In this document: piece by piece, positions 9,983 to 45,901 of the stretch | Layout: each line of letters begins with the position of its first letter | How positions within the stretch are numbered: position 1 is the stretch's first letter | Source: Escherichia phage vB_EcoS_Zar3M | Direction: 5' to 3' (one strand) | Sequence record: NC_073065.1 | DNA length: 45,901 nt | Notes under the pieces: generated by a model | Told to the model about the DNA's origin: nothing | Database searches by the model: none | What the model saw: the letters and a program-made list of their open reading frames with translations, nothing else | Program-made: the position numbers and the translations under genes

Positions 9983-9997
9983 TGGCCCCCTTTTATT
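9974..9997. terminator. bidirectional intrinsic terminator
   Basis: GGGGCC-GTGAT-GGCCCC followed by TTTTATT on + strand and AT-rich tail on - strand; lies between convergent Rz1 (+) and 9996..10760 (-). Confidence 0.6.
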
Positions 9998-10760: not shown

Positions 10761-10803
10761 TTTTGTGTCCTCGTTGTTGGGGCTTTCGCCCCGTTTGGTT
10801 TAG

Positions 10804-11211: not shown

Positions 11212-11212
11212 T

Positions 11213-11300
11213 TTGTTTTTCCTTCATGTCTCTGTTGGTGTGCAACCAATATAGTGCAACCAATACGCGGATTGCAAGCGAATTTTGCGATTATTTTTAT
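11213..11300 (-). promoter_or_regulatory. promoter-like element with tandem ATTGGTTGCAC motifs and conserved 40-bp box
   Basis: On - strand reads CTTGCAA-N8-ATTGGTTGCAC-TATATT-ATTGGTTGCACACC; shares ATAGTGCAACCAAT and TGCAAG(C/T)GAATTTTGC with 30281-30320. Confidence 0.4.
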
Positions 11301-16846: not shown

Positions 16847-17160
16847 AAGNGGGACGTCTCCCTTTTTCCCGCCCTNCAAAACTNCATACCTNCTCAATTC
16901 CNCTGCATAAACNCAAAACGGGNCAGGNGGGNCNNCCCNCTTTNTCCCNCCCCNCAAATGCGCATACCTATGCAGTTTTAATGCATAAAGTAAGCGGGAC
17001 AGAAAGCGGGACAGAAAANNGGGGGGAAAAAGNGGGANAGCACCCCGTCCCCGCCAGTGCTGCCGCGGTTTTCAGCCGATCGGGACAGGCGGGACAACCC
17101 CCAGTNTTTCANACTAGACGGGGGTCAACGGCCCCCCTCGTNTGAGACTGAANAAGGTTT
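16847..17160. repeat. iteron-rich non-coding element, copy A (GCGGGACA octamers plus conserved stem-loop)
   Basis: At least 5 direct GCGGGACA-type boxes (16994, 17006, 17032 masked, 17080 variant, 17089), inverted CGTCCCCGC, stem-loop AGACGGGGG...CCCCCCTCGT flanked by CAGTCT/AGACTG; about 35 bp nearly identical to 45620-45655. Confidence 0.6.
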
Positions 17161-26969: not shown

Positions 26970-27231
26970 TTCTACACTCCACAATTTCAAATTTATCTTC
27001 GCTTTGCCATCTGTGAACGAAAGTTACAAATTTCTGTGATGGGGCTACTCGGTATTGTTTTTCGCCAAATCGGTTTTCACGCACCGCGTTTAGTTTAACA
27101 GGGTAGCTATCGTTTACGGGGAATGTTTTAACCGCATATTGGCCTACGCAATCGATAGCCTTGTAGTTGCCGTCTGGCGATGCGGAGCAACCGGACAAAA
27201 GAACCGCACAAATCATAATTAAAGTTTTCAT
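26962..27231 (-). CDS. small outer-membrane lipoprotein (Cor/Llp-like superinfection exclusion candidate)
   Basis: ATG at 27231 with AGGAG RBS; signal peptide plus lipobox MKTLIMICAVLLSGCSASP; divergent from tail fibre gene. Confidence 0.55.
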   Translation of the reverse strand: MKTLIMICAVLLSGCSASPDGNYKAIDCVGQYAVKTFPVNDSYPVKLNAVRENRFGEKQYRVAPSQKFVTFVHRWQSEDKFEIVECRNE

Positions 27232-27311
27232 GGTATCATCTCCTATATTTGGTTGAGTTTTAGTATTACACCGCTCGATCAAGAATGCAACCAATTTACG
27301 AGGATTTAGCT

Positions 27312-29135
27312 ATGGCAGCGGGCACACTATCCGTAACGAATAACAGCAAGGCGGTTGTAGGGGTCGGGACAACGTTTACCGCGTTTAACGCTGGCGACTT
27401 CTTAACGCTGGTGGTAGGGCAAGTCCCCTACACCGTAGCAATCGCGTCCGTTGAAAGCGAAACCGCGCTTACGCTGGTGTTACCGTTCGACGGCCCAACG
27501 GCAACCGGCCTTGCGTGGGATGGCGTTAAGCGCGATACCATGTCACTGGCGACGATGGGCGTAACCGTACAGGCACAGAAAGCATTGCGCTTGATGCTTG
27601 CAGATGAAAACAACTGGCGTGCAATCTTCGGCGACGCTGAAGAAATAACCGTGACGTTGCCTAACGGGCAGGTAATGCAGGGTATGTCATGGGGATATCT
27701 GTCGCAGTTGATGAAACAGGTCGACCCAGTTGAGATGCGCAACCTGCAACAGCAAGCCGCCGCATCTGAAGCAGCCGCGCAGGGATACCGGAACGAGGCC
27801 GAAGGCTTCAAGACCGAGACGGCGGGCATTCGCGACGCCACCAATCAGATTAAGGCGGATACGCAGGCGATCCACGACGCCACTAATACCATCAAGACGC
27901 AGACTGACCTGATTAAGACTGATACTCAGGCCATCAAGGACCAGACGAACCAGATCAAGACTGACACCGGCGTTATTCGTGACGAAGCCAATATGGCGAA
28001 GACTGACGCGCAGGCCGCCAGCGCTGCCGCGCAGGGATTTCGCGATCAGGCCGAAGAATGGGCGCAAAGCGTAAACCCCGACAATCTGCTAACCAAATCC
28101 GGCAACCTCGCCGGGCTTGCGGACAAAAGTGCGTCGTGGGCTAACCTTATGCCGTCAGGACCGCTTCGCGTAGGTGCGGACCCCGTAAACACCCTGGACG
28201 CTGCGACTAAAGGGTGGGTGTGGCGCGGTCTTGATGACGTGGGGCTTTGGGGTTTACGCAATAACTACGCTTCAGAACCCGCAGGGGGTGCAGAAGTATA
28301 CGGCGGGCGCTTTGACTCCTCTGTGAACGTCGCAGGGACCGAAAAATACAGAATGTCGATACAGCTTCAGGGGCGTAATAACGTAGACGCCTGGACACGT
28401 TTGGCGACCGCTGACGTCCGCAGCATGGCGAACGCGGCGACGTGGGACTTTAAATATGATGGCAAGATTATTTTCAATAAGGGATTGAGTCCATCGTCCA
28501 CCTCGGCGTCGCCAGGTAATACCTACGTAACCCTTGCGAATACATGGATGGACAGCCAATACTCGGGACACGTCGGCTTTGTTGGAGGCGGGGCGGGGAC
28601 GAGTGGTGGCGGGTGGCGTAACTTTATTTCGTTCGGCGCGCTGATCCACCCGCCCACCGGTAACTCGCACCCCCATGCTATGATTGCGCAGGTCTTTGAT
28701 TATGATTTGGCGTCCGGGACACAGCCTAACGGCGATAGCGTTCGAAACACTACATTCAACCCCGAAGCATACGATATCACCTTCGGCAACAACTTAGGGA
28801 CTGTTAACTATATTTTCGCAAAGTCCCCGGTATCCGATAGGGCGCTGAAGCATGATATCGCCCGGATCGATACTCAAGTTGCGTACGATAACGTTATGAC
28901 TATGGAGTACTCGTCCTTTGTTTATAACTACGACAAAAAAGAGACGGTTAGACGTGGTTTTATCGCGCAGCAGTTGGAAGAGATCGACCCGCAGTATGTC
29001 CGCAAGTACACCAACGCAACCGGTAAAGAGTTTCTGGCATTAGATGAAAACGTCCTACTACTTGACCTAATCGCGACTGTTCAGCATTTGGCGGCGAAGG
29101 TTGAGGCGTTAGAAAGTAAGTTAGCGGAGAAATGA
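27312..29135 (+). CDS. tail fibre protein with C-terminal intramolecular chaperone (peptidase S74-like) domain
   Basis: ATG at 27312 with AGGA RBS; coiled-coil heptad-like repeats (IKADTQAIHDATNTIKTQTDLIKTDTQAIKDQTNQIKTDTGVIRDEANMAKTDAQ); C-terminus DRALKHDIARIDTQVAYDNVMTMEYSSFVYNY...GFIAQQLEEIDPQYV typical of auto-cleaving chaperone domains. Confidence 0.75.
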   Translation: MAAGTLSVTNNSKAVVGVGTTFTAFNAGDFLTLVVGQVPYTVAIASVESETALTLVLPFDGPTATGLAWDGVKRDTMSLATMGVTVQAQKALRLMLADENNWRAIFGDAEEITVTLPNGQVMQGMSWGYLSQLMKQVDPVEMRNLQQQAAASEAAAQGYRNEAEGFKTETAGIRDATNQIKADTQAIHDATNTIKTQTDLIKTDTQAIKDQTNQIKTDTGVIRDEANMAKTDAQAASAAAQGFRDQAEEWAQSVNPDNLLTKSGNLAGLADKSASWANLMPSGPLRVGADPVNTLDAATKGWVWRGLDDVGLWGLRNNYASEPAGGAEVYGGRFDSSVNVAGTEKYRMSIQLQGRNNVDAWTRLATADVRSMANAATWDFKYDGKIIFNKGLSPSSTSASPGNTYVTLANTWMDSQYSGHVGFVGGGAGTSGGGWRNFISFGALIHPPTGNSHPHAMIAQVFDYDLASGTQPNGDSVRNTTFNPEAYDITFGNNLGTVNYIFAKSPVSDRALKHDIARIDTQVAYDNVMTMEYSSFVYNYDKKETVRRGFIAQQLEEIDPQYVRKYTNATGKEFLALDENVLLLDLIATVQHLAAKVEALESKLAEK

Positions 29136-29140
29136 GAATA

Positions 29141-29164
29141 AGGGGCCATACGGCCCCTTTTTTA
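29141..29164. terminator. bidirectional intrinsic terminator between late (+) and replication (-) operons
   Basis: AGGGGCC-ATAC-GGCCCCT followed by TTTTTT; convergent stops on both sides. Confidence 0.65.
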
Positions 29165-29737
29165 GTTTGAGTTTTCCCAGTCCATTTTGCGCCGCACCAG
29201 CGGGCTTTCAAAGTATTCCTTGCCCTCAACTTCCACCAAAGGCCAGTCGTTCACAATCACGTACGGCTCCGCGATATCCTCAATCACGCCGTGCGCGCTT
29301 TGCGGCCCTAACGACACACCAACCAGGATAACCCCGGCAACTCGACGAGTGAGATACTCGCGAGCGCAACGTGCCTCAACCAGCCCCCTACGGATGCCGC
29401 TGGTGGCCTTAACCTCGTACGCCCAAACGGCATCAATCATATGTTCCCGGAAGTCGGGACCAGACTTTACCTTGCGTTTGCCGACCATGATAATATCGCC
29501 GCGGTCGATAGTGTTAGCGCTAAACAGGCCGGTACGCATTAGCAAACCTTGAGGGATACAGCTACGCCCGCCCGCCTGCCCTTCTAGGTACATGCCCGCA
29601 AACATCTCACCCAGCACACCTACAAGGCGGCTTTGTTTGCACGCGTCAGACTTTAAGCGCCACTGTTCAAACTCTATGCTTGCGATCATTGCTGCGAGGT
29701 GGAATTGTTTACCGGTTATTTCATATTCGCCGTACAT
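29162..29737 (-). CDS. hypothetical protein, possible PD-(D/E)XK nuclease
   Basis: GPDF...(18 aa)...YEVKA resembles a PD-(D/E)xK core; weak assignment. Confidence 0.35.
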   Translation of the reverse strand: MYGEYEITGKQFHLAAMIASIEFEQWRLKSDACKQSRLVGVLGEMFAGMYLEGQAGGRSCIPQGLLMRTGLFSANTIDRGDIIMVGKRKVKSGPDFREHMIDAVWAYEVKATSGIRRGLVEARCAREYLTRRVAGVILVGVSLGPQSAHGVIEDIAEPYVIVNDWPLVEVEGKEYFESPLVRRKMDWENSN

Positions 29738-29778
29738 TGTGAATCCCTCATTGATGCGGGCCGAAGCCCGCGATTAAA

Positions 29779-30231
29779 TTATTTAAGTGCGCCAGTCACC
29801 AGTGTTTTTTCCATGTTGCGGAAATCTTCCGGCGTCATGAGGATTTTGGACCCATCTTCGCCGGTGAGCACGACCATAGGCCGGGCGTCTTGATCTGCGG
29901 TGGGGCAACCTTTGAGGCTTTCAAACTGTTCTGCCGTTGTGTCGATCTGAATCTCGTCATGCACGGGCATGTAAGACTCGCCCAGCAGGGAGGCATACGC
30001 CACCAGGTCCACGATGTTATCTTCCTGGTGCTTACGGTGCTGTCGCACCAGCTTCAGGCAGATCAGGAAGGTCCAGGCTTCTTGCTCGGTCAGGTCGCGA
30101 CCGGTAAGCGCGTTAAACACGGCAGCGATTTGCTTAGCGCTGCGTTCCTCTTTCGCGTTGTCATAGCCGTTTTCTTTTCCGCGCTGTTCCATAGTGGTGG
30201 CGGCGTTTTTGCAGTATTCGTATGCTTTCAT
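29779..30231 (-). CDS. hypothetical protein (150 aa), all-alpha acidic
   Basis: Intact ORF with AAAAAGGAAAACACCATG start context; upstream promoter-like box with palindrome GCAACCAATTTATTGGCTGC. Confidence 0.45.
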   Translation of the reverse strand: MKAYEYCKNAATTMEQRGKENGYDNAKEERSAKQIAAVFNALTGRDLTEQEAWTFLICLKLVRQHRKHQEDNIVDLVAYASLLGESYMPVHDEIQIDTTAEQFESLKGCPTADQDARPMVVLTGEDGSKILMTPEDFRNMEKTLVTGALK

Positions 30232-30294
30232 GGTGTTTTCCTTTTTCGGGGAGGCCGTATTGCCTCCCTGCGCGTTAACTATAGTGCAACCAAT

Positions 30295-30765
30295 TTATTG
30301 GCTGCAAGTGAATTTTGCAACGTTTATTGCGTAAATATTCGGGACCAGATCNNTGNNCGCCCGACGAATTGCCGCGATGTTCTTCTCGCAATCTTCAATG
30401 ATGACCAGTTCCGACACGTCCGCATAGCAGACCATTTTGAACACGGCGCACGCCTTAAACTCAGGCGGTGGGGTGTCGTCCAGCATGTGGCGCATAAACA
30501 ACCGACCGACAGGGAAGACCTCCAGTTGCTCGGCGGTAGTCTCCCAGCATTCTCGCTGCCGGTTTGTCAGATACGCGATCTCGAAGCCTTGCTCTTTATA
30601 CATGCTCAACAGCGGCAGCATATCCATGTTAAGGTCTTCGCGTACGTGCGCTTTGTGCCACTTCGCCCAAAATGTTGATTTGGTTTTTATACCTGGAACC
30701 AGGTCGGCGCGTGCATCACTCGAACCATTAATAACGCCATCAAGATCACAAATCAGTAGTTTTAT
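30295..30765 (-). CDS. HAD-superfamily hydrolase (phosphatase/nucleotidase-like), non-ATG start
   Basis: HAD motif I KLLICDLDGVI lies 46 codons upstream of the first ATG (30627); motif II IAYLTNRQ, motif IV-like IIEDCEKN; only in-frame start is ATA at 30763-30765 overlapping the upstream TAA. Confidence 0.5.
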   Translation of the reverse strand: MKLLICDLDGVINGSSDARADLVPGIKTKSTFWAKWHKAHVREDLNMDMLPLLSMYKEQGFEIAYLTNRQRECWETTAEQLEVFPVGRLFMRHMLDDTPPPEFKACAVFKMVCYADVSELVIIEDCEKNIAAIRRAXXDLVPNIYAINVAKFTCSQ

Positions 30766-30986
30766 TGTAAGCTCTCAATAAGGGTGTATCGGACGCTGCG
30801 CGCGGAAAACTTGTTACACACAAGATGCCAACGGGCGGTTATGACCAGCCAGCCGGTAAGATCCAGGCCCAGGATATATTCTGGACGTGACACGCGCTTC
30901 ACACGATCGCGGCGCGGGTCGATGTTATAGTCTATTTGCATTCGGACTACTACCGCAGGGTCGCGGTTAACGATTAAGATATTCAT
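30762..30986 (-). CDS. hypothetical protein (74 aa)
   Basis: Intact ORF between Dam and HAD genes; overlaps both. Confidence 0.4.
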   Translation of the reverse strand: MNILIVNRDPAVVVRMQIDYNIDPRRDRVKRVSRPEYILGLDLTGWLVITARWHLVCNKFSARSVRYTLIESLQ

Positions 30987-31452
30987 GTAGTACTCCTTCG
31001 CTCATTATTTCAATTCGTGCGCTGCCGATTGGCGGCGCTTCGTCAAAGATTATCAATTGCTGGCACTTGTTATTGCTCGGCCCGACTTCACCGGTGACAG
31101 CGTGTATAAATCTAATCCGCCAGTCCAGAAGAATTATCAGGTTTGCCGCCTTCCGGGCCAGCTTCGCCCACTTCGTCGACGTGTCCTGATTCAGTAGCAT
31201 GACAGTCTGGCGTCCGTGCGCCGCGCATTCCACCCACGGCAGCGGATCGGAATACGGCGGGTTGCACCACTTCCACCCTTTCAACTCTGCCCAGTCCACA
31301 TCAAGCGCGCTGTGCTCTGCCGTGAAGTAACGCGGTAGCAGATGATTGGCGTCGCTTGCCGCCATATCGTAACGGAATCGGTACTTCCGACGAAGCGGTT
31401 TAAATAAAGCTGGCGGCGTGCGCCAGCTATCTTTTTGCTTATTCTTCTGCAT
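30967..31452 (-). CDS. DNA N6-adenine methyltransferase (phage Dam-type)
   Basis: N-terminal WRTPPALF, DMAASDANHL and NPPY catalytic motif (WCNPPYSD), matching the small phage T1-type Dam family. Confidence 0.7.
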   Translation of the reverse strand: MQKNKQKDSWRTPPALFKPLRRKYRFRYDMAASDANHLLPRYFTAEHSALDVDWAELKGWKWCNPPYSDPLPWVECAAHGRQTVMLLNQDTSTKWAKLARKAANLIILLDWRIRFIHAVTGEVGPSNNKCQQLIIFDEAPPIGSARIEIMSEGVLHEYLNR

Positions 31453-31903
31453 GACCTGGATCTATCGCATAAAGTGGACTCTTATTGCCGGTTTTCATAA
31501 CGCGCTGGACGCGCTTTGACTCCTCGGCGCTCAGTTGGCGCGCATTCGTGTATAACCTGCCGTTTGTATGTATGCGCCACGCTATCAGCACCAGATCTTT
31601 CCGGTCGATCTTAGACTGGCGGCCCTTCGGTCGCACGTACGCCTCGGCCCGTTTGCAATGCTCGCGCAGACCTTCGGCAGTGATGCGGTTTAGTTGAACG
31701 GTGGTTGTGTACCCGGTGCGCTGCATAATACCCATCAACTCATACAGCAGTTCGAAGCGCTCCTCTAATTCCTTGCGCGCCTTCTCCTCGCCTTCATATC
31801 GCGCATGATAGGTGTCTGCCAGCGCGCTAACACGTTCGGCCTGTTCTCGGGCTTCGAGGCATTGCGCGGCCCAGTATGCTTTNTCGAAAAATAATGATCT
31901 CAT
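31439..31903 (-). CDS. hypothetical protein (154 aa)
   Basis: Listed ORF begins at TTG; likely true start is ATG at 31903 (GGAGACGACACATG). Helical, charged protein. Confidence 0.45.
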   Translation of the reverse strand: MRSLFFXKAYWAAQCLEAREQAERVSALADTYHARYEGEEKARKELEERFELLYELMGIMQRTGYTTTVQLNRITAEGLREHCKRAEAYVRPKGRQSKIDRKDLVLIAWRIHTNGRLYTNARQLSAEESKRVQRVMKTGNKSPLYAIDPGHAEE

Positions 31904-31990
31904 CGTGTCGTCTCCAGGTATTAAAAAAGGGCGTCCAAACCGGACACCCTCAATATAACGCAACCAATATGATTATGCAACCAATTTACG
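31904..31990 (-). promoter_or_regulatory. promoter-like region with two ATTGGTTGC motifs
   Basis: On - strand: CGTAAATTGGTTGCATAATCATATTGGTTGCGTTATATT then RBS; shares 17/18 nt (ATGCAACCAATTTACGA) with 27285-27302. Confidence 0.4.
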
Positions 31991-32303
31991 AATAAAAGTT
32001 CGGGTCGCGTGCGACGTCTACCAGGTAAAGGTTACTTATGCGGTTGCCGTAGTGCCCTGGAGTGCGCTGGCGGCACACAACGGCGAAGCCGGGAGGGATT
32101 GTATTGCCCGTCTCAATAATCCACGCGACGCGTGCGCCAGACAGCGTCTTTCCGTTGCATTCGATACGTGTTCCGCCATCGGCAGTATTGATGTTGCCAA
32201 TCTTGCAGCCGGTGGACTTCAGACGGATGACGCCGGTTTTGCTGTCGTAGGTGAATAGCTGGTTAGTCATTGCGACCGAAAAGTCGATGGCTTCGAATGT
32301 CAT
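31986..32303 (-). CDS. HNH endonuclease-like protein (intact copy)
   Basis: Pattern LFTYDSKTG...GKTLSGARVAWIIETG..IPPG...NRISNLYLV resembles HNH_3-type phage endonucleases, though the canonical DH dyad is not obvious; ATGA overlap with methyltransferase. Confidence 0.45.
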   Translation of the reverse strand: MTFEAIDFSVAMTNQLFTYDSKTGVIRLKSTGCKIGNINTADGGTRIECNGKTLSGARVAWIIETGNTIPPGFAVVCRQRTPGHYGNRISNLYLVDVARDPNFYS

Positions 32304-32995
32304 TTTAAATTTTCCTCGTTAACCGCTATCGCGAAGCCGCGCGGAGTGAGCGACCGGATTAATTTTGTGCGGGCTGATTTGCCTCCGAGGCGACTATACT
32401 GCTTCGAGTACCCTTTTTCAACGAAAACAGGTCTCTTCTCTGGCATACGGAAGCCGTTGCCGGTCCATAAGCAGGTCAGCTTCGGATATGAATCGCGAGC
32501 GTTGATGTATTCCGGGAAGAGCGGGTGTACGTCATCCTCCGGCAGATATCCCCCATACTCCCACGGGTCGAATGAGTGATCCGGCTTGCGCCACTGGGTG
32601 GAAAGCACACTGCGCGGATTCTCAATCATATATGGCACTTCAAAGAAGTCACCTAAGTAAGCGGCAATCTTCGCGGNGCGCACCGCCTTAAGCTGAAAGG
32701 CAGGGTCTTTAGCACGCTTGCGAGGGAAAGCGGGTGCACCGCTCACTGCCAGATCCGTACACGGCGGGAATGCATAAATGATATCCGGCGTGCCGAAATC
32801 ACCATTCATCGCGCGGTCCACGAAGTCCAGATCGATAAACTCATTACGATATCGGATACCGCGCCCATAAATCCGGTAGTCCAGGTACGAGCCGTGATCG
32901 GCTTCGGAGTAGTTGAAGCAATAACACTTATGCCCCATCTCGGCAGCACGCTCAATCATCAAGCCGCTGCCGTCGAATAATGACCAGATAATCAT
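32300..32995 (-). CDS. DNA (cytosine-5)-methyltransferase-like protein, copy 1
   Basis: Motif I-like SLFDGSG, PC motif AFPPCTDLAVSG, ENV-like MIENP; 231 aa (short for a C5-MTase). Confidence 0.6.
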   Translation of the reverse strand: MIIWSLFDGSGLMIERAAEMGHKCYCFNYSEADHGSYLDYRIYGRGIRYRNEFIDLDFVDRAMNGDFGTPDIIYAFPPCTDLAVSGAPAFPRKRAKDPAFQLKAVRXAKIAAYLGDFFEVPYMIENPRSVLSTQWRKPDHSFDPWEYGGYLPEDDVHPLFPEYINARDSYPKLTCLWTGNGFRMPEKRPVFVEKGYSKQYSRLGGKSARTKLIRSLTPRGFAIAVNEENLK

Positions 32996-33264
32996 ATGCG
33001 CGCCTTTTTAGCTTTCATGTATTCCATCAAGTCGTCCTGGATATCTCGCTTACTGTCTCGACGCTCTGCGACCAGTTCATCCAGTGTGCCGCGCGCCTGG
33101 ATAATGTAGACGAATACCGGACGAGGGTGTCCGGCTTGCATCTGGCGAACTGGCCCGATACGTTCAACTGCCCGTCTCAATAATCCACGCGACGCGTGCG
33201 CCAGACAGCGTCTTTCCGTTGCATTCGATACGTGTTCCGCCATCGGCAGTATTGATGTTGCCAA
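32992..33264 (-). pseudogene. helicase 3' fragment (duplication-derived ORF)
   Basis: C-terminal 57 aa identical to helicase C-terminus (ERIGPVRQMQAGHPRPVFVYIIQARG...KAKKARI); N-terminal part is out-of-frame junction sequence. Confidence 0.5.
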
Positions 33265-33367
33265 TCTTGCAGCCGGTGGACTTCAGACGGATGACGCCGG
33301 TTTTGCTGTCGTAGGTGAATAGCTGGTTAGTCATTGCGACCGAAAAGTCGATGGCTTCGAATGTCAT
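33164..33367 (-). pseudogene. truncated HNH endonuclease-like gene (duplication-derived)
   Basis: First 66 aa identical to 31986..32303, truncated at the duplication junction and lacking the NRISNL region. Confidence 0.5.
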
Positions 33368-34059
33368 TTTAAATTTTCCTCGTTAACCGCTATCGCGAAG
33401 CCGCGCGGAGTGAGCGACCGGATTAATTTTGTGCGGGCTGATTTGCCTCCGAGGCGACTATACTGCTTCGAGTACCCTTTTTCAACGAAAACAGGTCTCT
33501 TCTCTGGCATACGGAAGCCGTTGCCGGTCCATAAGCAGGTCAGCTTCGGATATGAATCGCGAGCGTTGATGTATTCCGGGAAGAGCGGGTGTACGTCATC
33601 CTCCGGCAGATATCCCCCATACTCCCACGGGTCGAATGAGTGATCCGGCTTGCGCCACTGGGTGGAAAGCACACTGCGCGGATTCTCAATCATATATGGC
33701 ACTTCAAAGAAGTCACCTAAGTAAGCGGCAATCTTCGCGGNGCGCACCGCCTTAAGCTGAAAGGCAGGGTCTTTAGCACGCTTGCGAGGGAAAGCGGGTG
33801 CACCGCTCACTGCCAGATCCGTACACGGCGGGAATGCATAAATGATATCCGGCGTGCCGAAATCACCATTCATCGCGCGGTCCACGAAGTCCAGATCGAT
33901 AAACTCATTACGATATCGGATACCGCGCCCATAAATCCGGTAGTCCAGGTACGAGCCGTGATCGGCTTCGGAGTAGTTGAAGCAATAACACTTATGCCCC
34001 ATCTCGGCAGCACGCTCAATCATCAAGCCGCTGCCGTCGAATAATGACCAGATAATCAT
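33364..34059 (-). CDS. DNA (cytosine-5)-methyltransferase-like protein, copy 2
   Basis: Identical to 32300..32995; ATGA overlap with full-length helicase stop. Confidence 0.6.
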   Translation of the reverse strand: MIIWSLFDGSGLMIERAAEMGHKCYCFNYSEADHGSYLDYRIYGRGIRYRNEFIDLDFVDRAMNGDFGTPDIIYAFPPCTDLAVSGAPAFPRKRAKDPAFQLKAVRXAKIAAYLGDFFEVPYMIENPRSVLSTQWRKPDHSFDPWEYGGYLPEDDVHPLFPEYINARDSYPKLTCLWTGNGFRMPEKRPVFVEKGYSKQYSRLGGKSARTKLIRSLTPRGFAIAVNEENLK

Positions 34060-35480
34060 ATGCGCGCCTTTTTAGCTTTCATGTATTCCATCAAGTCGTC
34101 CTGGATATCTCGCTTACTGTCTCGACGCTCTGCGACCAGTTCATCCAGTGTGCCGCGCGCCTGGATAATGTAGACGAATACCGGACGAGGGTGTCCGGCT
34201 TGCATCTGGCGAACTGGCCCGATACGTTCAACGATCTGCGAAAAGTGCTCAAAGTTCCAGGTATCGGNGAAGATTGCCNGGNGNTGTCCTCCGTCCTGCA
34301 AGTTAAGGCCGTGGCCTGCCGATGCCGGGTGTGCAAACATGATGGGGATCTCGCCTCTGTTCCACGCTTCCATATCCTTATTGCCCTGCTTACCTTTACC
34401 CAACGCAACGCCGTGCGGAAATTTCTTCTTAAGACGTGCCAGGTCATGCTTGTACTGATACGCAACGAGCAACGGCGCACCGTTCAACTCCTCCACGATA
34501 CTTTCCAGCGCGTCCAGCTTCGCGTCGTGAATCTTCACCCACTCGTCGGTCCGTTCGCCGTCTTCGTCCACCTTATACACGGCACCGGACGCAAGCTGAA
34601 GGCACTTGATGGTCTTCGACGCAGCGTTCGCCGCCTCTACGGTCCCGCTTTCCAGTTCTGCAAATAGCTCCGCTTCAAACTGATCGTAAATCTTGCGGGC
34701 TTTCTTCGGCAGGTCCACAACAACCGGCGTATAGATTGGCTTGTCGCATCCGAAGTATTCAGCCGCGTCAACGGTTAGTGATACGTCAGACAGGCGTTGT
34801 TGTATTTCTTTCTCGGAGTTCTTTAGCGGAGCGTGCTGCATCGTGAAGCTGCCAGGCTTAACAGGCTTGCTAATGAACCAGCGATCGGTGAATGCCTTAT
34901 AGCTACTGCCGAGGCGTTCGCCACCGTCGACAAACCACGTCTGACCCCATAAGTCTTTCAGCCCGTTTGGTGCTGGTGTGCCTGTAAGGTTAATCCAGCG
35001 CTTGACGTGTTTATGTGCAATCGCTGCCAGTGCGCGGGCGCGCTTGCTCCCCTGCTTGCTACGATAGCCTTTCAGCTTAGTCGATTCATCGGCAACAACG
35101 ACCGTAAAGGGCCACGCATCGCCGTAATATTCGACCAGCCACTCGACCACATCGTAGTTAACACAAACCACGTTAGCGTCGCTATCAAGCGCGGCAATAC
35201 GGTCCTTCTCCGGTCCGGTGCCGTCTACGACCAGCAGGGNTGAGAACCNCCATTTCTCCTGTTCCGGGGGCCATGTACCCGACGCAACACGCAGCGGGGC
35301 CAGCACCAGTACGCGGTCCTCATGATGGGACAGGATGCCAGTCTGGAACATTTTGTTCAGCGCCCACATTGTCGCGCCGGTTTTACCCGACCCCATTGTC
35401 GCCCAGATATTGCATCGCTTATGCTTGAGGATGAACGCGGTAATCAACTTCTGATATTCGCGGCGTCGGAATCGTGCCAT
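34056..35480 (-). CDS. SNF2/DEAD-like superfamily 2 helicase
   Basis: Walker A MGSGKTG, DEAH-like VVVADEST, C-terminal helicase domain; likely start is ATG at 35480 (MARFRRREYQ), not the upstream listed start. Confidence 0.75.
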   Translation of the reverse strand: MARFRRREYQKLITAFILKHKRCNIWATMGSGKTGATMWALNKMFQTGILSHHEDRVLVLAPLRVASGTWPPEQEKWXFSXLLVVDGTGPEKDRIAALDSDANVVCVNYDVVEWLVEYYGDAWPFTVVVADESTKLKGYRSKQGSKRARALAAIAHKHVKRWINLTGTPAPNGLKDLWGQTWFVDGGERLGSSYKAFTDRWFISKPVKPGSFTMQHAPLKNSEKEIQQRLSDVSLTVDAAEYFGCDKPIYTPVVVDLPKKARKIYDQFEAELFAELESGTVEAANAASKTIKCLQLASGAVYKVDEDGERTDEWVKIHDAKLDALESIVEELNGAPLLVAYQYKHDLARLKKKFPHGVALGKGKQGNKDMEAWNRGEIPIMFAHPASAGHGLNLQDGGXXXAIFXDTWNFEHFSQIVERIGPVRQMQAGHPRPVFVYIIQARGTLDELVAERRDSKRDIQDDLMEYMKAKKARI

Positions 35481-35484
35481 GTCT

Positions 35485-35703
35485 TTATTCCGCCTTTTTC
35501 CAGACTTCGGTTTCACTGTTCCAGTTCCTTTTTGTGGCGTCGTAGTTGGTGGCGTGTCCGATGTGGACACCGGTAGCCCGGAAGCTCTTAAATTTTTGCC
35601 AGCACACCGTCAACGGCAGCGGATCATTCATGCCCGCGATAAACCATACGCGATCGCCCGGTTTACATTCGCCCAGCTTGGTGAGTCGGTAATGTTCTTT
35701 CAT
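35485..35703 (-). CDS. hypothetical protein (72 aa)
   Basis: ATG with GGGAGA RBS right after a terminator-like hairpin; stop 5 nt before helicase start. Confidence 0.4.
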   Translation of the reverse strand: MKEHYRLTKLGECKPGDRVWFIAGMNDPLPLTVCWQKFKSFRATGVHIGHATNYDATKRNWNSETEVWKKAE

Positions 35704-35721
35704 CGTCATGTCTCCCAAAAA

Positions 35722-35745
35722 TGGCGGGACAAGCCCGCCGTATTA
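35722..35745 (-). terminator. terminator-like hairpin (- strand)
   Basis: On - strand GGCGGGC-TTGT-CCCGCC followed by ATTTTT, just after the stop of 35747..35920. Confidence 0.4.
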
Positions 35746-35746
35746 A

Positions 35747-35920
35747 TTATTTTTGTTCTGCACGGTAGCGGCGCTGCCGTTCGCGCTCTTTCTTATTGCG
35801 GCACGATTTGCACTCTGCCCGATACCCGTCTGGACTGCGCGCAGTCTTACCGGTGTATTTGTGGAACTGGGATAGCGGCTTTACACAGCCGCAATTACTA
35901 CAACGTTTTTCTTCAATCAT
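35747..35920 (-). CDS. small zinc-ribbon protein (57 aa)
   Basis: ATG at 35920 with AGGA RBS; Cys4 pattern CSNCGC...CKSC and basic C-terminus; the longer listed ORF has a hydrophobic non-coding-like N-extension. Confidence 0.4.
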   Translation of the reverse strand: MIEEKRCSNCGCVKPLSQFHKYTGKTARSPDGYRAECKSCRNKKERERQRRYRAEQK

Positions 35921-35960
35921 CTCTAAAATCCTCGATATGGCTAACCGGCACACTATACCG

Positions 35961-36239
35961 TTATGCGACCAATTCAGCAACCAATAAATCGCAGTCGGAT
36001 ATGTTGTCGATAACGCGAACGTCAGCACCGCGGCGGGCCATTCGCTCATGTTCACGTACCTGGTGCGGCTTCGGTTTTCCTCCGGGGCGCTTCACTTCGA
36101 CGAACACTATTTTGCCGTTGATGATAATAATCAGGTCGGGCGCACCCGCGCGCCCCTCCCATGCCAGTTTGCGGCAGAATCCGCCTACCTCTTTCACCCG
36201 TCGCTTCAGGTGACTTTGAATCTTGCCCTCTGGTGTCAT
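35961..36239 (-). CDS. VRR-NUC domain nuclease
   Basis: Motif GAPDLIIIINGKIVFVEVKRPGG (PD...E-V-K); start at 36239 or at 36311 overlapping polymerase 3' end. Confidence 0.6.
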   Translation of the reverse strand: MTPEGKIQSHLKRRVKEVGGFCRKLAWEGRAGAPDLIIIINGKIVFVEVKRPGGKPKPHQVREHERMARRGADVRVIDNISDCDLLVAELVA

Positions 36240-36270
36240 AATCTTATTCCCGTCAAAAGCAACATTTCCG

Positions 36271-38562
36271 TTACTTGCGGTAGCGATACATGCAATCGCC
36301 TTCGGCGGCAAGTGGGAAGCCTTTCGCCCATACAGGCAGGTCGCACATCAGCGCGCAAAGCTCCTCGGTCGTGTAGTCGTCGGTGTCGGGCACTTCTGTG
36401 ATCAATTCATCATGCACCGACAGGACGATTTCATACCCCGCAGCTTCAACGCCGGGCATGGACCATGCGAGAATATCGCGACACAACGCCTGCACTATGT
36501 TCTCCGTAAGTTTGCCGCCGTAGGTATACTGGAAGCCCCACTGGCGCGTCGTCTGATTCTCGCCCTGGTATTTGATGCGGGTGCTGGTACGCTTCTTGCC
36601 GGTGTCTTCGTCAATCTCGGTCGTGACAGACAGTGCGATGCCTGGGTAGCTCATGATGCGCCCTGACGGCAACTCAATTTTAAGCCACCACCCTGCCGCG
36701 TTCGGGTCGTCGCGCTCCTCNTCAAAGGTNGGGTNGTGCTTCGCCTTCGTACGGACAATNTTGNGCGCTTTCCTGCCGNCCGGGCGAACGTTCGCGCCAG
36801 CCCAGTATGCTTTGCCCGGATTGCGGATTGCACACAACACCGCGTCCTCAAGCTCGGCCCAAAAGGCTACCGTCATCGGGTGAGCCTCACGCCACATACG
36901 TTTGATCGCGTCACAAGTAAGCCATACGTTTTTCGGCAGTATGTAAGTAGGGCGCTCGTCCTTCTTGCCCGGCTTCGGCGGGCGCTTCGCTTCGTTAATG
37001 CGGGCGTACTCATAACCACGTTTCGCCGCCGCCCAAATGTGATCCGGGAACGTGCCTTTCATCACGTCCNCCATAGTGTAAAGGTCGAGGCCCAGGTTTT
37101 TAGCGAACTGCAAGAACGCCGCGACACCNCCNCCATAGCCCAGTCCCAATTCNCNCGCCTTACCGATCTGGCGCAAGTCTTTGCGGTTGGCTTTAATGTA
37201 GTCCGGGTCCAGGCCGAACATCTTACCGGCAGTCTCACAATAGATATCGCGACCGGCCTTAAACACCATGAGCGCTGTTTTCTCGCCAGCGATCCAGGCA
37301 AGGCCACGCCCTTCCACGTTGGAGTAGTCCGCTACGACAAACTTCTTACCCTTCGCCGGAATAATGCACCCGCGAACGGTCGAGGCTGTTAGCTTAGATA
37401 TGTCATACGCCCAGTGCGCTGTCCCGCGTAACAGGGAGTTTATGCCGTTGGTAAGCATGTGCGACCTGACCCAGAAAGAGACGTCGCTTTCGCCTTCGCG
37501 GCGCTTAATCTTACCTTCGTGGTCGTCGCTATACTCGCCGCGTGCCAGGTTTTGAGGCTGGAAGCCTTTACCGGCCCAGCGTAGCGTGCGCTTTGCGCCG
37601 CCATACTGAAGACACCCACGACGGCGACCATCGGCAGACAGCCCATTAACGAGCGGATTGTATTTAGTCGATGCCGTTGATGACGCGCCGAGGCGCATTT
37701 CGATAAGCGCTTTGCCTTCGTCTGGGAAGTCCGGGTCTTCAAGCAGGTCGTTTAGCGTGGATTTCTGCGCGTTGTGTATCGTGAATGCTGGCGCAATATC
37801 ACGCAGGATTGGCAGGAAGTCATTGCCAGTCAGCTTACCGCCAAATCGCTCCCAGGCTTCTTCCTTCAATTCTTCCTTATGCGCCTGCACCGCTTTGATC
37901 GCGGCGTTCGCCAGGTCAACGTCCACATAGAAGCCGCGGTCGTTGATCAACTGGTCGATAAGCAGGATTTCATCTTCCTTCGGAGTATTACCCCAGTCCG
38001 GTATGCGCCAGTAGACTTCACGCATTGCGATAATATCCAGCGCGGCATATCGCAAAAATTTGGCCCATTCTTCCGGGTGAGTCTCGCGGGNGTAGCGGCG
38101 GATTTTGTAGGTCTTAGGGGTAGGCTTACAGAACCGTTTAATCAGCGCCTTGCCTGCCTTATCCTTCGCGTGCTCTGCGTCAACGCCCAGCACCTGACAT
38201 TGCATATCGAGGCTGCCCGGCAGCGCGTGCCGAAAGGCCATAATCATGGTATCTTCGATCTGGCTTACCGGCAGGTCGATTCCCCACTTCTCACGGATAA
38301 CCAGGCGGTCAAACAGGAGGCCGTTAGCCATCACTATTTTTGCTTTNTTGCGGGATACATGGCGGAGCGCCTTGCGCAGTTCACGCGGCATTGTGGGGGA
38401 TTCAGTGCAATCCCATGTCTGCACGCGGCCCTCGTCGATGGCGTATGTGCAAATCATAATCTCGGTGGTTGGGTGCTCTGAGTAGGCGTACGCCCCAACT
38501 TTCTTCAGGTCCACCCCGCTAAATGTCTCGGTGTCGAGAAACAGGCGTTCGAAGTCTTTCAT
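36271..38562 (-). CDS. DNA polymerase I (family A) with 3'-5' exonuclease domain
   Basis: N-terminal Exo I motif FLDTETFSG; 763 aa with family A polymerase-like C-terminal half; n-masked patches inside. Confidence 0.9.
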   Translation of the reverse strand: MKDFERLFLDTETFSGVDLKKVGAYAYSEHPTTEIMICTYAIDEGRVQTWDCTESPTMPRELRKALRHVSRXKAKIVMANGLLFDRLVIREKWGIDLPVSQIEDTMIMAFRHALPGSLDMQCQVLGVDAEHAKDKAGKALIKRFCKPTPKTYKIRRYXRETHPEEWAKFLRYAALDIIAMREVYWRIPDWGNTPKEDEILLIDQLINDRGFYVDVDLANAAIKAVQAHKEELKEEAWERFGGKLTGNDFLPILRDIAPAFTIHNAQKSTLNDLLEDPDFPDEGKALIEMRLGASSTASTKYNPLVNGLSADGRRRGCLQYGGAKRTLRWAGKGFQPQNLARGEYSDDHEGKIKRREGESDVSFWVRSHMLTNGINSLLRGTAHWAYDISKLTASTVRGCIIPAKGKKFVVADYSNVEGRGLAWIAGEKTALMVFKAGRDIYCETAGKMFGLDPDYIKANRKDLRQIGKAXELGLGYXXGVAAFLQFAKNLGLDLYTMXDVMKGTFPDHIWAAAKRGYEYARINEAKRPPKPGKKDERPTYILPKNVWLTCDAIKRMWREAHPMTVAFWAELEDAVLCAIRNPGKAYWAGANVRPXGRKAXXIVRTKAKHXXTFXEERDDPNAAGWWLKIELPSGRIMSYPGIALSVTTEIDEDTGKKRTSTRIKYQGENQTTRQWGFQYTYGGKLTENIVQALCRDILAWSMPGVEAAGYEIVLSVHDELITEVPDTDDYTTEELCALMCDLPVWAKGFPLAAEGDCMYRYRK

Positions 38563-39906: not shown

Positions 39907-41329
39907 TGCTTAAGTCCTCGTCAGTAGCTACAGACCACGCAGGGCGCGGGTCGTCGATGGGTGCTAATACCGGTTTAGCGGGTGCGCGCGTGATTTTATC
40001 ACACAACTTTGCCCACACTTTCGGCTTCTCGTCCTTCAATACCTTCTCGGCATCAGTAGGGCTGAGTAATGTTTCTTTGTACATCACGTCGCGCTTGATC
40101 CGGGCCTTCGTGAAGATCTCAATCACTTCGCTCTCGTCCGCCCACTTGCGGATTCCTTCCTTACCGGCAACCATCTTGAGGCCCAGCGATTCNCCATCAC
40201 CCNCCATTACGGCCTTNAACNCCGCGGNCNCGANAGCCTTGNTNTGNTGGCGCNTTGNGNCAANACCTTCANAANCCTTNCGCNGTTCCNCCNCNCCCAN
40301 NGCNCNGGGGGGGNCTTTTTTTTTNCCCCNCTCCCCNCGNGGNNCCCCTTTGGGGGNTNNGGGGGCCATNTTGNGGNCGTGATTGGCGCATTCTTCCTCT
40401 GTCGAAATACTCACGTCGTCGCCCAGGTCTTCGTCTGTTGCCGTTGGTGGGGCCATAGTGTCGATTGCAGCCTTAGCGCGGGCGCTACACTGATCCGCAA
40501 ATCTGCACCATTGACACGCATCAACGCTCGGTCGGAAGTCGGCACGGGTGAGTCCCTTTTTGCCGCGGTCGTACGCTTCCAGGGCGGCGATAGCACGCTT
40601 GGACGCAAACTTCGCGAATATCTCCAGGGCTTCTACCGAAATATCCCACTCCGACGCCCCGCCGCAATACGGCTGGAAGATAACCAGGCGCACGGTCGTA
40701 ATGTCGTACATAGTTTTCAGCTTGCGCAGCAGGCCCAGCGCATACAACATAAGCTGTTTGTTTTCTTTCGCCTCGACCTTATGCCGCCCCGTCTTCAGGT
40801 CGCCAACAATCAGCATGTACGTGCCGTCGGTCTTCTTCATGACCATGACCATATCCGCAGTGCCGAACGTCTTAACCCGGTTGCCGTCGATCTCGAAGCC
40901 AGAGTGTAGGACGCGGGTAAGATCGGCGCGCATCTCAAGCTGAACAAACTCCGCCACTTCGAGGAGCGGTCGCCAGTGGTCGATGTATGCGTCGCACTGT
41001 TTCACCATGTCGTCGTTGACCAGCACGCCGCCTTTCGGTGCTTTCGGGTGCGCCTTCACCGGCCCCTTACCTTCGTTCTCGACGTAACACCCTTTGTACG
41101 TCTTCGCGGTTATCAGCTTTTCACCGGCGATAATGCGGTTGAGCACGACTTCAGATACAGTGTGCATACTCGTACCGTTAATCGCCGCTTGCCCGGATTC
41201 GTTCGGGATACCTTGTTCTACCACCAGGGCGGCTGGGCAACCCATCCATTTTTTAGCACCGGATGGGCCGAGTAATGAATGCTCCGTGTTGCTACCGGAT
41301 TGCGTTTTACGTTTTGGTTTAATCGCCAT
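39899..41329 (-). CDS. DUF2800-type PD-(D/E)XK nuclease (Cas4-like, Cys cluster)
   Basis: N-terminal LLGPSGAKKWMGCPAA and C-terminal CQWCRFADQC Cys cluster, as in Cas4/RecB-like phage exonucleases. Confidence 0.65.
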   Translation of the reverse strand: MAIKPKRKTQSGSNTEHSLLGPSGAKKWMGCPAALVVEQGIPNESGQAAINGTSMHTVSEVVLNRIIAGEKLITAKTYKGCYVENEGKGPVKAHPKAPKGGVLVNDDMVKQCDAYIDHWRPLLEVAEFVQLEMRADLTRVLHSGFEIDGNRVKTFGTADMVMVMKKTDGTYMLIVGDLKTGRHKVEAKENKQLMLYALGLLRKLKTMYDITTVRLVIFQPYCGGASEWDISVEALEIFAKFASKRAIAALEAYDRGKKGLTRADFRPSVDACQWCRFADQCSARAKAAIDTMAPPTATDEDLGDDVSISTEEECANHXXXMAPXXPKGXXXGEXXKKKXPPXXXXXXEXXKXXEGXXXXRXXXKAXXXAXXKAVMXGDXESLGLKMVAGKEGIRKWADESEVIEIFTKARIKRDVMYKETLLSPTDAEKVLKDEKPKVWAKLCDKITRAPAKPVLAPIDDPRPAWSVATDEDLSNE

Positions 41330-41517
41330 TATTCCACCCTTGAAAATTGAGCAATGTAATAGTCGTGTTTAACATTGGCCCGCTTCGCGGCTTCGTTCAT
41401 GGTAGCCGCCAGTCCTCGAGCTTGCATCCAGCAGCAATTCCAGTTTTGATTCATAACAATTTCTGGTTGCTCGTCGCCGGTAATACGGCAACGAAATAAA
41501 ACAAAGAATATAGCCAT
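41329..41517 (-). CDS. hypothetical protein (62 aa)
   Basis: Short ORF in operon context; stop overlaps DUF2800 start. Confidence 0.3.
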   Translation of the reverse strand: MAIFFVLFRCRITGDEQPEIVMNQNWNCCWMQARGLAATMNEAAKRANVKHDYYIAQFSRVE

Positions 41518-41769
41518 TTATTTTGTCTCCCAGCGGTCAATTGTTTTTGCTTCGGATGCAACTGCGAAGCGAACATATTCCAGATTGGAATCCGCCCAAA
41601 TATAAAAGTCGGGGTTAGTAAAGGTGGTGCGCTTAATTTGCGCGGGGGTGTTACGGCGTTTATCTATTACGGCAACGCGTGACTGAAAGCTGCCGATGCG
41701 TTCGAATAGCCAATAGTACGGGCGCTGGTCGCGGGAGTCCACCGCCTCGATTAGCGTGAAGCGTGCCAT
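41518..41769 (-). CDS. hypothetical protein (83 aa)
   Basis: ORF with AGAGGACGAGACAATG start context immediately after a terminator. Confidence 0.4.
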   Translation of the reverse strand: MARFTLIEAVDSRDQRPYYWLFERIGSFQSRVAVIDKRRNTPAQIKRTTFTNPDFYIWADSNLEYVRFAVASEAKTIDRWETK

Positions 41770-41782
41770 TGTCTCGTCCTCT

Positions 41783-41809
41783 AAAAATAGGCCCGCAGAT
41801 TAGCGGGCC
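41783..41809 (-). terminator. intrinsic terminator (- strand)
   Basis: On - strand GGCCCGC-TAATCT-GCGGGCC followed by TATTTTT. Confidence 0.5.
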
Positions 41810-41817
41810 GGAATATA

Positions 41818-41943
41818 TTAATCTTCACCGCCGAGTTGTCTATAAACCTCGTCCGGGTCGTCGCCTCTTTCTTCGCAGAAGGCGGTGAACGCCGCCCAAT
41901 TTTCTGCTATGAAATCGAGCATGATTCTCATTTCATAGTCCAT
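41818..41943 (-). CDS. small acidic hypothetical protein (41 aa)
   Basis: Unlisted ORF MDYEMRIMLDFIAENWAAFTAFCEERGDDPDEVYRQLGGED between acidic repeat protein and terminator. Confidence 0.25.
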   Translation of the reverse strand: MDYEMRIMLDFIAENWAAFTAFCEERGDDPDEVYRQLGGED

Positions 41944-41947
41944 GATA

Positions 41948-42463
41948 TTAATCTTCCAGTTCGAAATAGGTTTCGACGATTTCTTTTAGCTCTTTGTGGA
42001 AGTCTTCGACGTCGTCATCTTCCAGCTTGGCGATTGATTTGATCTCGAACGATTCCAGCAGGTCGTCGAATTCGTCGTTCGCATCGTCGTCATCACCACC
42101 GGCGATAATCGCGGCATACTGTTTGATTTCGTCGCGCATCTCCGCCAGCGGATCGGCATCTTTCTTACCTTTGCCTTTCGCCGGTGCTTTCTTAGACTTA
42201 GCCGGTTTTTCGTCTTCGGCATCGTCGTCGTCATCTTCTACGACTTCTTTTTTAGCCTTACCTTTCGCCGGTGCTTTTTTAGCTTTAGCCGGTTTTTCGT
42301 CTTCGGCGTCATCGTCGTCATCTTCGACAACTTCTTTTTTGGCCTTAGACGGCTTCTTGTCTTCCTGTTTACCAACGGCAGCGCCAACGGTTTCATAATG
42401 CTTTGCAATGGTTTCCAGTGCTACTACGCCGCGAGTGATCAGGTTTACGATTTGCTCAAACAT
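41948..42463 (-). CDS. highly charged tandem-repeat protein (171 aa)
   Basis: ATG at 42463 with GGAGATATACATG; contains a 2x tandem repeat KKEVVEDDDDDAEDEKPAK(A/S)KKAPAKGK (DNA direct repeat about 60 bp at 42200-42330) plus acidic C-terminal region. Confidence 0.5.
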   Translation of the reverse strand: MFEQIVNLITRGVVALETIAKHYETVGAAVGKQEDKKPSKAKKEVVEDDDDDAEDEKPAKAKKAPAKGKAKKEVVEDDDDDAEDEKPAKSKKAPAKGKGKKDADPLAEMRDEIKQYAAIIAGGDDDDANDEFDDLLESFEIKSIAKLEDDDVEDFHKELKEIVETYFELED

Positions 42464-42699
42464 GGTATATCTCCGATTGGTTAAGTTTAGGTGTCGGCAG
42501 TTAACTTCGTCGGTGGCCTTAACATATTGCCAGGTTACGCGTTCTCCCGTTCGGGTAGTGGACCTGGTTATATAATCACGGTTGGGAATCCTGACACTTC
42601 GATCCGGCCCCTGCGTTGCCCCTCTCCAGTTTGCGTCCTGCATCCTGTCGACGGAGTGAATGATAGATTGGTTGGAGGAGGGGTGTCAACAACTAATTT

Positions 42700-45546: not shown

Positions 45547-45619
45547 ATTTTTAGTGTTTTTATCTGGTCGTATTGGTTGCCGTGTAGTGTGTATATAATG
45601 AATAGTTATGCAATAAAAC

Positions 45620-45790
45620 TGCATAAAGTGAGCGGGACAGAAAGCGGGACAAACAAGGGGCGGGACAAAGCGGGACAGCGCCCCCGTCCCGCCCCGGATG
45701 GCGCGGCCTAGAGAGGAGCGGGACAGCGGGACAAAACCCCAGTCTTTCAGACTAGACGGGGGTCGATGGCCCCCCTCGTCTGAGACTGAA
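45620..45790. repeat. iteron-rich non-coding element, copy B (GCGGGACA octamers plus conserved stem-loop)
   Basis: Six direct GCGGGACA boxes (45632, 45644, 45660, 45670, 45718, 45726) and inverted CGTCCCGC (45685-45692); stem-loop CAGTCTTTCAGACTAGACGGGGGTCGATGGCCCCCCTCGTCTGAGACTG; homologous to 16980-17156. Confidence 0.65.
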
Positions 45791-45901
45791 TAAAATCCGG
45801 GGATTGCAAATTACACGGNAGCATNACGCGAAGTGCGGTCGCGGATGAACTAGGCAACCAATGCAAACCGCATTACGCTGAGTGAAAAATGCGGTTTGCA
45901 G

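Follow-up and report, generated by a model that had tools for sequence, protein, structure and literature searches.

The window (the whole 45,901-nucleotide stretch analysed here) carries an exact tandem repeat of 1,064 bp that it has inherited from another sequence record. Judging from its alignments, the window is a reference-anchored, substitution-only consensus laid onto the genome of Escherichia phage vB_EcoS_PTXU06 (MK373789.1, genus Dhillonvirus), and the duplication came with that scaffold. In PTXU06 itself, the repeat is most likely an assembly overlap, not biology. A preliminary description had offered the alternatives of a recent duplication and an assembly artefact; the second of these is favored and the first less so, by a route through the PTXU06 scaffold that is invisible in the sequence alone.

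Self-comparison of the window confirmed that the perfect tandem duplication previously noticed at 32105-34232 is real in the sequence: Positions 32105-33168 equal 33169-34232 with 0 mismatches over 1,064 positions, including the lone N of each copy, which lies at the same offset (32677 in copy 1 and 33741 in copy 2). An exact repeat of this length cannot arise by chance. Since the period-1064 identity stops at the unit edges and extends not one base further on either side (T at 32104 vs. C at 33168 before the unit; G at 34233 vs. T at 33169 after it), the joint has 0 bp of microhomology. The copies are strictly tandem, and the breakpoints are arbitrary, falling inside two genes (HNH-like and helicase). 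An Rfam scan of the whole window matched no family. The structural features are as follows:

1-45901, plus strand: whole window, a gapless substitution-only projection on PTXU06 coordinates 1-45901 (blastn)
32105-33168, unstranded: copy 1 of the 1,064-bp unit, identical to 33169-34232; same coordinates and exact duplication in MK373789.1
33169-34232, unstranded: second copy of the 1,064-bp unit, differing from PTXU06 at the 91 offsets also seen in copy 1
33149-33188, unstranded: novel joint 33168/33169, where the helicase 3′ end meets mid-gene sequence of the HNH-like gene with 0-bp microhomology

The ORFs of the duplicated region are all on the minus strand. The gene content proposed earlier (two identical methyltransferase-like genes, a truncated copy of the HNH-like gene, and a stray helicase 3′ fragment) is borne out in full by the ORF list:

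31986-32303, minus strand: complete HNH-like gene, 105 aa (PTXU06_00045), with the 3′ third beyond the unit
32300-32995, minus strand: methyltransferase-like gene copy 1, 231 aa (PTXU06_00046; PHROG 757)
32992-33168, minus strand: stray helicase 3′ fragment, 177 nt (the last 58 codons and stop), overlapping the start of methyltransferase copy 1
33164-33367, minus strand: truncated HNH-like ORF, 67 aa (PTXU06_00047), crossing the joint by 5 nt
33364-34059, minus strand: methyltransferase-like gene copy 2, 231 aa, identical to copy 1 (PTXU06_00048)
34056-35480, minus strand: intact SNF2-type helicase (Pfam SNF2-rel_dom, PHROG 62), its last 177 nt within the unit

In both methyltransferase-like copies the upstream context is preserved, as is the 4-nt overlap of start and stop with a helicase 3′ end; the duplication costs no intact gene. 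The gene labels given previously are acceptable but soft. For the 231-aa protein, the sole match is to PHROG 757, "DNA methyltransferase" (E = 1e-81); Pfam (E up to 10) and NCBIfam (E up to 0.01) returned nothing, and a search of PDB sequences (E up to 1) brought up no methyltransferase. FDGSG, PPC, and ENP motifs can be seen by eye in its translation, and relatives annotate the gene as a Dcm-like C5 methyltransferase. None of the curated models or solved structures searched gave a significant C5-methyltransferase match, and the C5 cytosine label for this enzyme is putative. The HNH-like protein matches PHROG 99, "HNH endonuclease," partially (E = 4.5e-16), with a sub-threshold match to Pfam HNH_3 (E = 0.066).

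A single blastn alignment pairs positions 1-45901 of the window with 1-45901 of PTXU06; it has 0 gaps and contains 2,326 substitutions and 577 N. The PTXU06 record (also NC_073064.1; Korf et al. 2019, PMC6563267) has the same exact 1,064-bp duplication at 32105-34232; the two lengths are within 3 bases of each other and all ORF coordinates are equal, and the two differ at the substituted and N positions and by no indel. In contrast, a comparison of PTXU06 with phage CEC_Kaz_2018 (MK728541.1) requires 21-26 gap openings across ~9 kb that include 30000-38000, and indels would therefore be expected in a natural relative as divergent as the window.

The window's bases come closest to those of CEC_Kaz_2018 (96-97% identity, N counted as mismatch), which has the same gene order of helicase, methyltransferase-like, and HNH-like genes. 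Unlike the window, it has one copy of the unit, and its indels with respect to PTXU06 are missing from the window. We compared the three sequences base by base and indel by indel over 30000-38000, relying elsewhere on BLAST summaries. In this interval, 315 of the 345 window substitutions relative to PTXU06 match the CEC_Kaz_2018 base, while all seven internal indel events (3, 2, 6, 6, 1, 6, and 32 nt) side with PTXU06. Runs identical to PTXU06 (26970-29940, the longest at 2,971 bp; 9982-11253; and 41395-42654) alternate with stretches that are 5-10% divergent. The tail-fibre gene of the window equals that of PTXU06 exactly, although CEC_Kaz_2018 differs there at many positions. The N are single positions and occur in clusters. 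Within the repeat, the 91 offsets at which copy 1 differs from PTXU06 are also those of copy 2 (8.6% divergence). The window thus combines all four marks of a reference-anchored consensus: collinearity without indels, foreign substitutions together with the reference's indels, reference-identical blocks with N, and equal calls in the repeats.

The sequence comparisons show how this transfer ran. Bases of one or more CEC_Kaz_2018-like Dhillonviruses were written onto PTXU06 coordinates (MK373789.1 / NC_073064.1); substitutions and N alone were transferred, leaving indels and structure as in the reference, and stretches with no usable data remained reference-identical. Because the reference has the unit twice, identical data went onto each copy, giving each the 91 shared changes and the shared N. 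This accounts for the identical N in both copies, which had been read as compatible with either a duplication or an artefact. Because it is a gapless, substitution-only projection onto PTXU06, the window has no independent word on the structure of the locus. CEC_Kaz_2018 has a 6-nt insertion in the HNH-like gene, and the DNA behind the window is predicted to have one unit, an HNH-like gene of 324 nt that includes this insertion, and numerous indels with respect to PTXU06.

We regard it as very improbable that the phage population behind the window carried a duplication of its own, either as an older repeat homogenised by gene conversion or as a close descendant of PTXU06. Copies that are mutually identical yet 8.6% different from PTXU06 would be in keeping with such an origin; however, zero indels over 45.9 kb at 5% substitution divergence would be unnatural in the mosaic genus Dhillonvirus, the window's bases track a single-copy phage, and the same breakpoints with 91 parallel changes would demand complete concerted evolution. 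The distribution of the joint also argues against it. Among 171 matching phage records (a 200-bp junction query of 50,697 phage records), only PTXU06 has the joint uninterrupted; CEC_Kaz_2018, WFI, and WF5505 have a single copy of the unit each. Degenerate patterns for the window and PTXU06 variants of the joint gave zero matches in viral, metagenome, and genome contig collections, and the 67-aa junction ORF has no exact match among recorded products. Homologues of this ORF fall into five clusters, every one of them full-length at 107-111 aa.

The comparison with close relatives, which had been suggested as a check on a real duplication, thus leaves PTXU06 as the sole carrier: The joint is in no other Dhillonvirus record or contig. 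In this analysis, the ideas of methyltransferase dosage and of imprecise HNH-mediated homing are unsupported. Limited space for redundant DNA in the phage head is itself a weak argument for this genus, whose genomes assemble as circles; packaging is headful with terminal redundancy (PMC9022532, PMC13348001), which would accommodate 1 kb more.

The question of origin accordingly passes to PTXU06. Circumstantial evidence leads us to think that its duplication is probably an untrimmed contig-end overlap turned internal by rotation. The ends of a contig from a circular or circularly permuted genome would share an untrimmed 1,064-bp self-overlap; were the contig then cut at a new start and the old ends joined with the overlap kept, an internal perfect tandem repeat would presumably result. 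The true PTXU06 genome would in that case have a single methyltransferase-like gene and a length of 44,840 bp, a value that does fall inside the range of most of the listed Dhillonvirus record lengths. The study that reported PTXU06 assembled its genomes with HGAP3 or SPAdes and then re-linearised or re-arranged contigs (PMC6563267), and when circular molecules are assembled with HGAP, the contig ends routinely overlap each other and need trimming by hand (e.g., PMC4358379). The start of the PTXU06 record was demonstrably reset after assembly: PTXU06, WF5505, and WFI share an identical homologous start base, and no listed record from before 2019 begins there. Three marks of an overlap artefact are found here, namely exact tandem copies with arbitrary breakpoints, a genus that assembles as circles together with a reset record start, and a joint absent from independent genomes. 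The PTXU06 record annotates the repeated genes as separate CDS, uncommented, and the paper neither reports nor discusses the repeat (the string "duplicat" is absent from it; PMC6563267). Table S4 lists a length of 42,321 bp against the 45,904 bp of the record; we rejected the idea that this reflects another assembly version, since the CDS lengths sum to 42,324, which points to a slip in the table.

Several observations run against an end overlap. The sequencing platform used for PTXU06 is unstated in the paper and its supplement, and the authors report coverage checks on final genomes (PMC6563267). WFI and G29-2, from the same study and scanned in full, have no long internal direct repeats, so a systematic pipeline fault is not supported; in WF5505, 2,026 bp are repeated exactly at the termini, with the unit single internally. 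A SPAdes contig at k = 55 would yield an overlap of 55 bp, not 1,064 bp, and PacBio long reads, if used, would also resolve a genuine duplication correctly. A headful packager is, moreover, physically able to hold the extra 1 kb.

A real and very recent 1,064-bp tandem duplication, formed in PTXU06 by illegitimate recombination during propagation or in nature and merely inherited by the window, is the main alternative, and one we consider unlikely. Equally unlikely is what it implies for gene content, two methyltransferase-like copies that would both be predicted to be functional. The exactness of the copies is what a recent event predicts, and the retention of upstream context and 4-nt overlap by both methyltransferase copies, with every intact gene kept, would fit it as well. 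So would the latitude of headful packaging, the inspection of coverage by the authors, the lack of such repeats in the other genomes of the study, the recorded length of WF5505 (45,056 bp plus its 2,026-bp terminal repeat), and the variability within Dhillonvirus of the interval that separates the helicase and HNH-like genes. On the other side, the duplication is unique in 171 records and missing from three contig collections, its joint has no microhomology, it passed without comment from the authors, and the record was re-linearised, the operation by which an end overlap takes on this very pattern. Neither independent occurrence nor descendants with the same joint, either of which would mark a genuine duplication, were found. 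It seems doubtful, by the same token, that PTXU06 is a snapshot of dosage adaptation against host restriction, in which a fresh, homology-independent 1,064-bp duplication would have doubled an orphan C5-methyltransferase-like gene at a genus-variable locus.

With an end overlap as the preferred explanation, the finding is mainly a caution on reference-derived sequences. The RefSeq species exemplar NC_073064.1 probably includes 1,064 bp of redundant sequence along with two spurious CDS. Read-mapping products built on it, of which the window is an example, inherit the repeat together with a spurious extra methyltransferase gene and spurious gene fragments; such sequences would lead to wrong gene counts, pangenome analyses, and claims of methyltransferase dosage. 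Were the duplication true, it would be a modest case of recent gene amplification in a lytic coliphage.

Genuine tandem duplications in phages have classical examples in T4 and lambda stocks; junction-spanning molecules are expected for them, and many of their joints use short homologies. The repeat in the window resembles these in being a head-to-tail repeat of ~1 kb with whole genes, within the packaging limit. It differs at the joint, where many genuine duplications have short homologies and the window has none. The other known system is the untrimmed self-overlap of circular contigs from HGAP and other long-read assemblies. From this the present case differs in that other genomes scanned from the PTXU06 study are clean. 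The shared features are an exact and strictly tandem repeat, arbitrary breakpoints within genes, a joint with no microhomology, a genome of a kind that assembles into a circle, and a re-linearised record.

The two copies of the 1,064-bp unit, at 32105-33168 and 33169-34232, agree at 1,064 of 1,064 positions when compared base by base, and a repeat finder concurs. The lone N of the unit sits at 32677 in copy 1 and at 33741 in copy 2. The joint (33168|33169) has no microhomology: period-1064 identity ends exactly at the unit boundaries. The preliminary description of an exact tandem duplication, and of the genes it carries, is accurate (0 mismatches; ORFs listed below).

Coding features at the repeat, in transcription order
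34056-35480, minus strand: SNF2-type helicase, intact
33364-34059, minus strand: methyltransferase-like gene, copy 2
33164-33367, minus strand: truncated HNH-like ORF (67 aa) crossing the joint
32992-33168, minus strand: stray helicase 3' end (177 nt)
32300-32995, minus strand: methyltransferase-like gene, copy 1
31986-32303, minus strand: full HNH-like gene (105 aa)

Similarity search assigns the region to the genus Dhillonvirus and finds one record that matches it in a single piece at the same coordinates: Escherichia phage vB_EcoS_PTXU06 (MK373789.1/NC_073064.1; 45,904 bp), whose annotated ORF coordinates are those of the window. The whole sequences form one alignment, 1-45901 to 1-45901, with 0 gaps, 2,326 substitutions, and 577 N; stretches identical to PTXU06 (e.g., 26970-29940, 9982-11253, and 41395-42654) interleave with stretches that are 5-10% divergent. 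In a three-way comparison confined to 30000-38000, with one repeat copy taken out, the window has the base of the Dhillonvirus CEC_Kaz_2018 (MK728541.1) at 315 of the 345 positions where it departs from PTXU06, and on this comparison its substitutions are real natural variation. At all seven internal indel events between the two phages in this interval (3, 2, 6, 6, 1, 6, and 32 nt), the window agrees with PTXU06. The HNH-like gene, for example, has the CEC_Kaz_2018 base at nearly every substitution, yet lacks the 6-nt insertion of that phage. Across the structural genes, window and CEC_Kaz_2018 are 96.6% identical, with ~365 N scored as mismatches, and the tail-fibre gene (27312-29135) equals that of PTXU06, though CEC_Kaz_2018 departs there at many positions.

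Natural relatives of similar divergence show 21-26 gap openings per 9 kb, i.e., dozens of indels. Set against these, the gapless alignment, the CEC_Kaz_2018 bases, and the PTXU06 indel states indicate that the window is a reference-anchored, substitution-only consensus. Bases of one or more CEC_Kaz-like phages were put onto PTXU06 coordinates, ambiguous positions became N, and reference sequence was kept where nothing transferred, the tail-fibre gene included. The 577 N are isolated positions grouped in patches (e.g., 1881-1967, 3584-3773, 19432-19584, and 40193-40377), and 21 of the 23 in 30000-38000 fall where PTXU06 and CEC_Kaz_2018 have the same base; this placement points less to low coverage than to source data containing a mixed population or a third variant.

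In PTXU06 the same coordinates hold the same 1,064-bp duplication, likewise exact, and both window copies depart from the PTXU06 sequence at the same 91 offsets. The same data laid on both reference copies would give the same 91 changes and the same N, which explains the shared N; in nature, complete concerted evolution would be needed. The closest source of bases, CEC_Kaz_2018, has just one copy each of the helicase, methyltransferase-like, and HNH-like genes. Since the structure of such a consensus is that of its reference, the window cannot serve as independent evidence that the duplication exists. We hold with high confidence that it was inherited from the PTXU06 scaffold, and consider it very unlikely that the sample from which the window derives carries it independently.

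Comparison with close relatives yields no second carrier. Of 171 phage records matching a junction query, PTXU06 alone has the joint uninterrupted, and WFI and WF5505 (MK373790.1), the two sister Dhillonviruses described together with it (Korf et al. 2019, PMC6563267), have one copy of the unit each. Patterns spanning both sequence variants of the joint found no match in viral, metagenome, or genome contig collections. No product on record is identical to that of the 67-aa junction ORF, and its homologue search returned full-length proteins and no truncated form.

Korf et al. (2019) nowhere mention the duplication, and neither paper nor supplement gives the sequencing platform for PTXU06. Assembly was by HGAP3 (PacBio) or SPAdes at k=55, and single contigs were linearised at recognised ends or else arranged after related phages (PMC6563267). 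PTXU06, WF5505, and WFI start at the identical homologous base, which none of the pre-2019 records among the matches listed uses; it follows that the PTXU06 contig was opened at a new point and closed across its original ends. Dhillonvirus genomes assemble as circles, with headful packaging from a pac site predicted (PMC9022532, PMC13348001), and when HGAP assembles a circular molecule, the two ends of the contig typically overlap and have to be trimmed manually (e.g., PMC4358379). Joining untrimmed ends and then rotating the sequence would make the overlap internal and yield exactly the pattern observed: a perfect tandem repeat, arbitrary breakpoints within genes, and no microhomology. Without one copy, PTXU06 measures 44,840 bp, inside the range of most Dhillonvirus record lengths among the matches listed.

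Most likely, then, the PTXU06 duplication is an untrimmed contig-end overlap made internal by re-linearisation, a reading we regard as probable rather than secure. Against it, SPAdes would leave an overlap of 55 bp instead of 1,064 bp; PacBio, if used, would have resolved a true duplication too; the authors state that coverage was inspected; and scans of WFI and G29-2, a further genome of the study, found no such repeats. A genuine recent duplication, for which a headful packager could carry the extra kilobase, is less likely, given a joint limited to PTXU06 among the records matched. Of the two origins offered in the preliminary description, recent event or artefact, the artefact is thus favoured by this joint and the re-linearised record. 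Its ideas of methyltransferase dosage and HNH-mediated homing are unsupported, and its argument from limited head space does not apply, because the WF5505 record combines 45,056 bp of unique sequence with a terminal repeat of 2,026 bp. The case is a warning that a false duplication is probably being passed on through a RefSeq exemplar.

Other records show irregularities of their own. The WF5505 repeat is exact (1-2026 and 45057-47082) and may reflect the first headful from pac, the genus being reported elsewhere as headful/pac, or an assembly overlap left in place. Escherichia phage P-GXEC-L2P5 (PQ843332.1), a Dhillonvirus record of 88,607 bp, roughly double the usual length in the genus, has two places for a single-copy query and probably represents a concatemer assembly that was submitted as one genome. 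Table S4 of Korf et al. (2019) enters VAH1, a 124-kb T5-like phage, as a Dhillonvirus; its 42,321 bp for PTXU06 is no real size conflict, matching the summed CDS lengths (42,324).

The duplicated gene encodes a 231-aa protein that matches PHROG 757, "DNA methyltransferase" (1e-81), and is annotated as Dcm-like in relatives; searches of Pfam, NCBIfam, and PDB sequences gave no match for it, and FDGSG, PPC, and ENP motifs are visible in its translation. The 105-aa protein matches PHROG 99 in its middle part alone and Pfam HNH_3 under threshold, so any catalytic activity of this HNH-like protein is putative. A 154-aa "hypothetical protein" adjoining the Dam gene (31439-31903, minus strand) matches PHROG 10530, "DNA ligase," over its full length (1e-85) and is very short for a ligase; relatives label it ligase or Cro/C1-type repressor. 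The interval from the helicase 3' end to the HNH-like gene (32105-33168) is a variable locus in Dhillonvirus, and the differing spacing of its flanks marks the methyltransferase-like gene as an accessory cassette.

Spacing of the same two flanks
EP23 and Dru_SM5: 380 bp, no methyltransferase gene
Teewinot, Opt212, and Shigella phage 1b: ~560 bp
PS2: 704 bp
PTXU06: 1,064 bp

The window also holds an 87-bp tandem repeat (two copies, 86% identity, 42154-42327) within a minus-strand CDS (41948-42463), which would encode a repeated acidic/lysine-rich segment. A conserved element of ~190 bp occurs twice per Dhillonvirus genome, with 77-85% identity between copies.

Positions of the ~190-bp element
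Window and PTXU06: 16964-17155 (A) and 45602-45793 (B)
WF5505: 17453-17629 and 44751-44927
WFI: 16949-17126 and 45230-45407

Copy A separates the tail-chaperone gene from the tape-measure gene and overlaps a doubtful annotated CDS, and copy B lies 111 bp ahead of the record end/start point common to the three Korf genomes. The element has no Rfam match. It holds six to seven iterations of CGGGACA, after which comes a GC-rich hairpin (AGACGGGGGTCAACGGCCCCCCTCGTCT); 10 of the 17 CGGGACA matches in the window fall inside its two copies, with 6.4 expected genome-wide. In its sequence the element looks like iterons, making it a candidate pac site, origin, or regulator-binding site.
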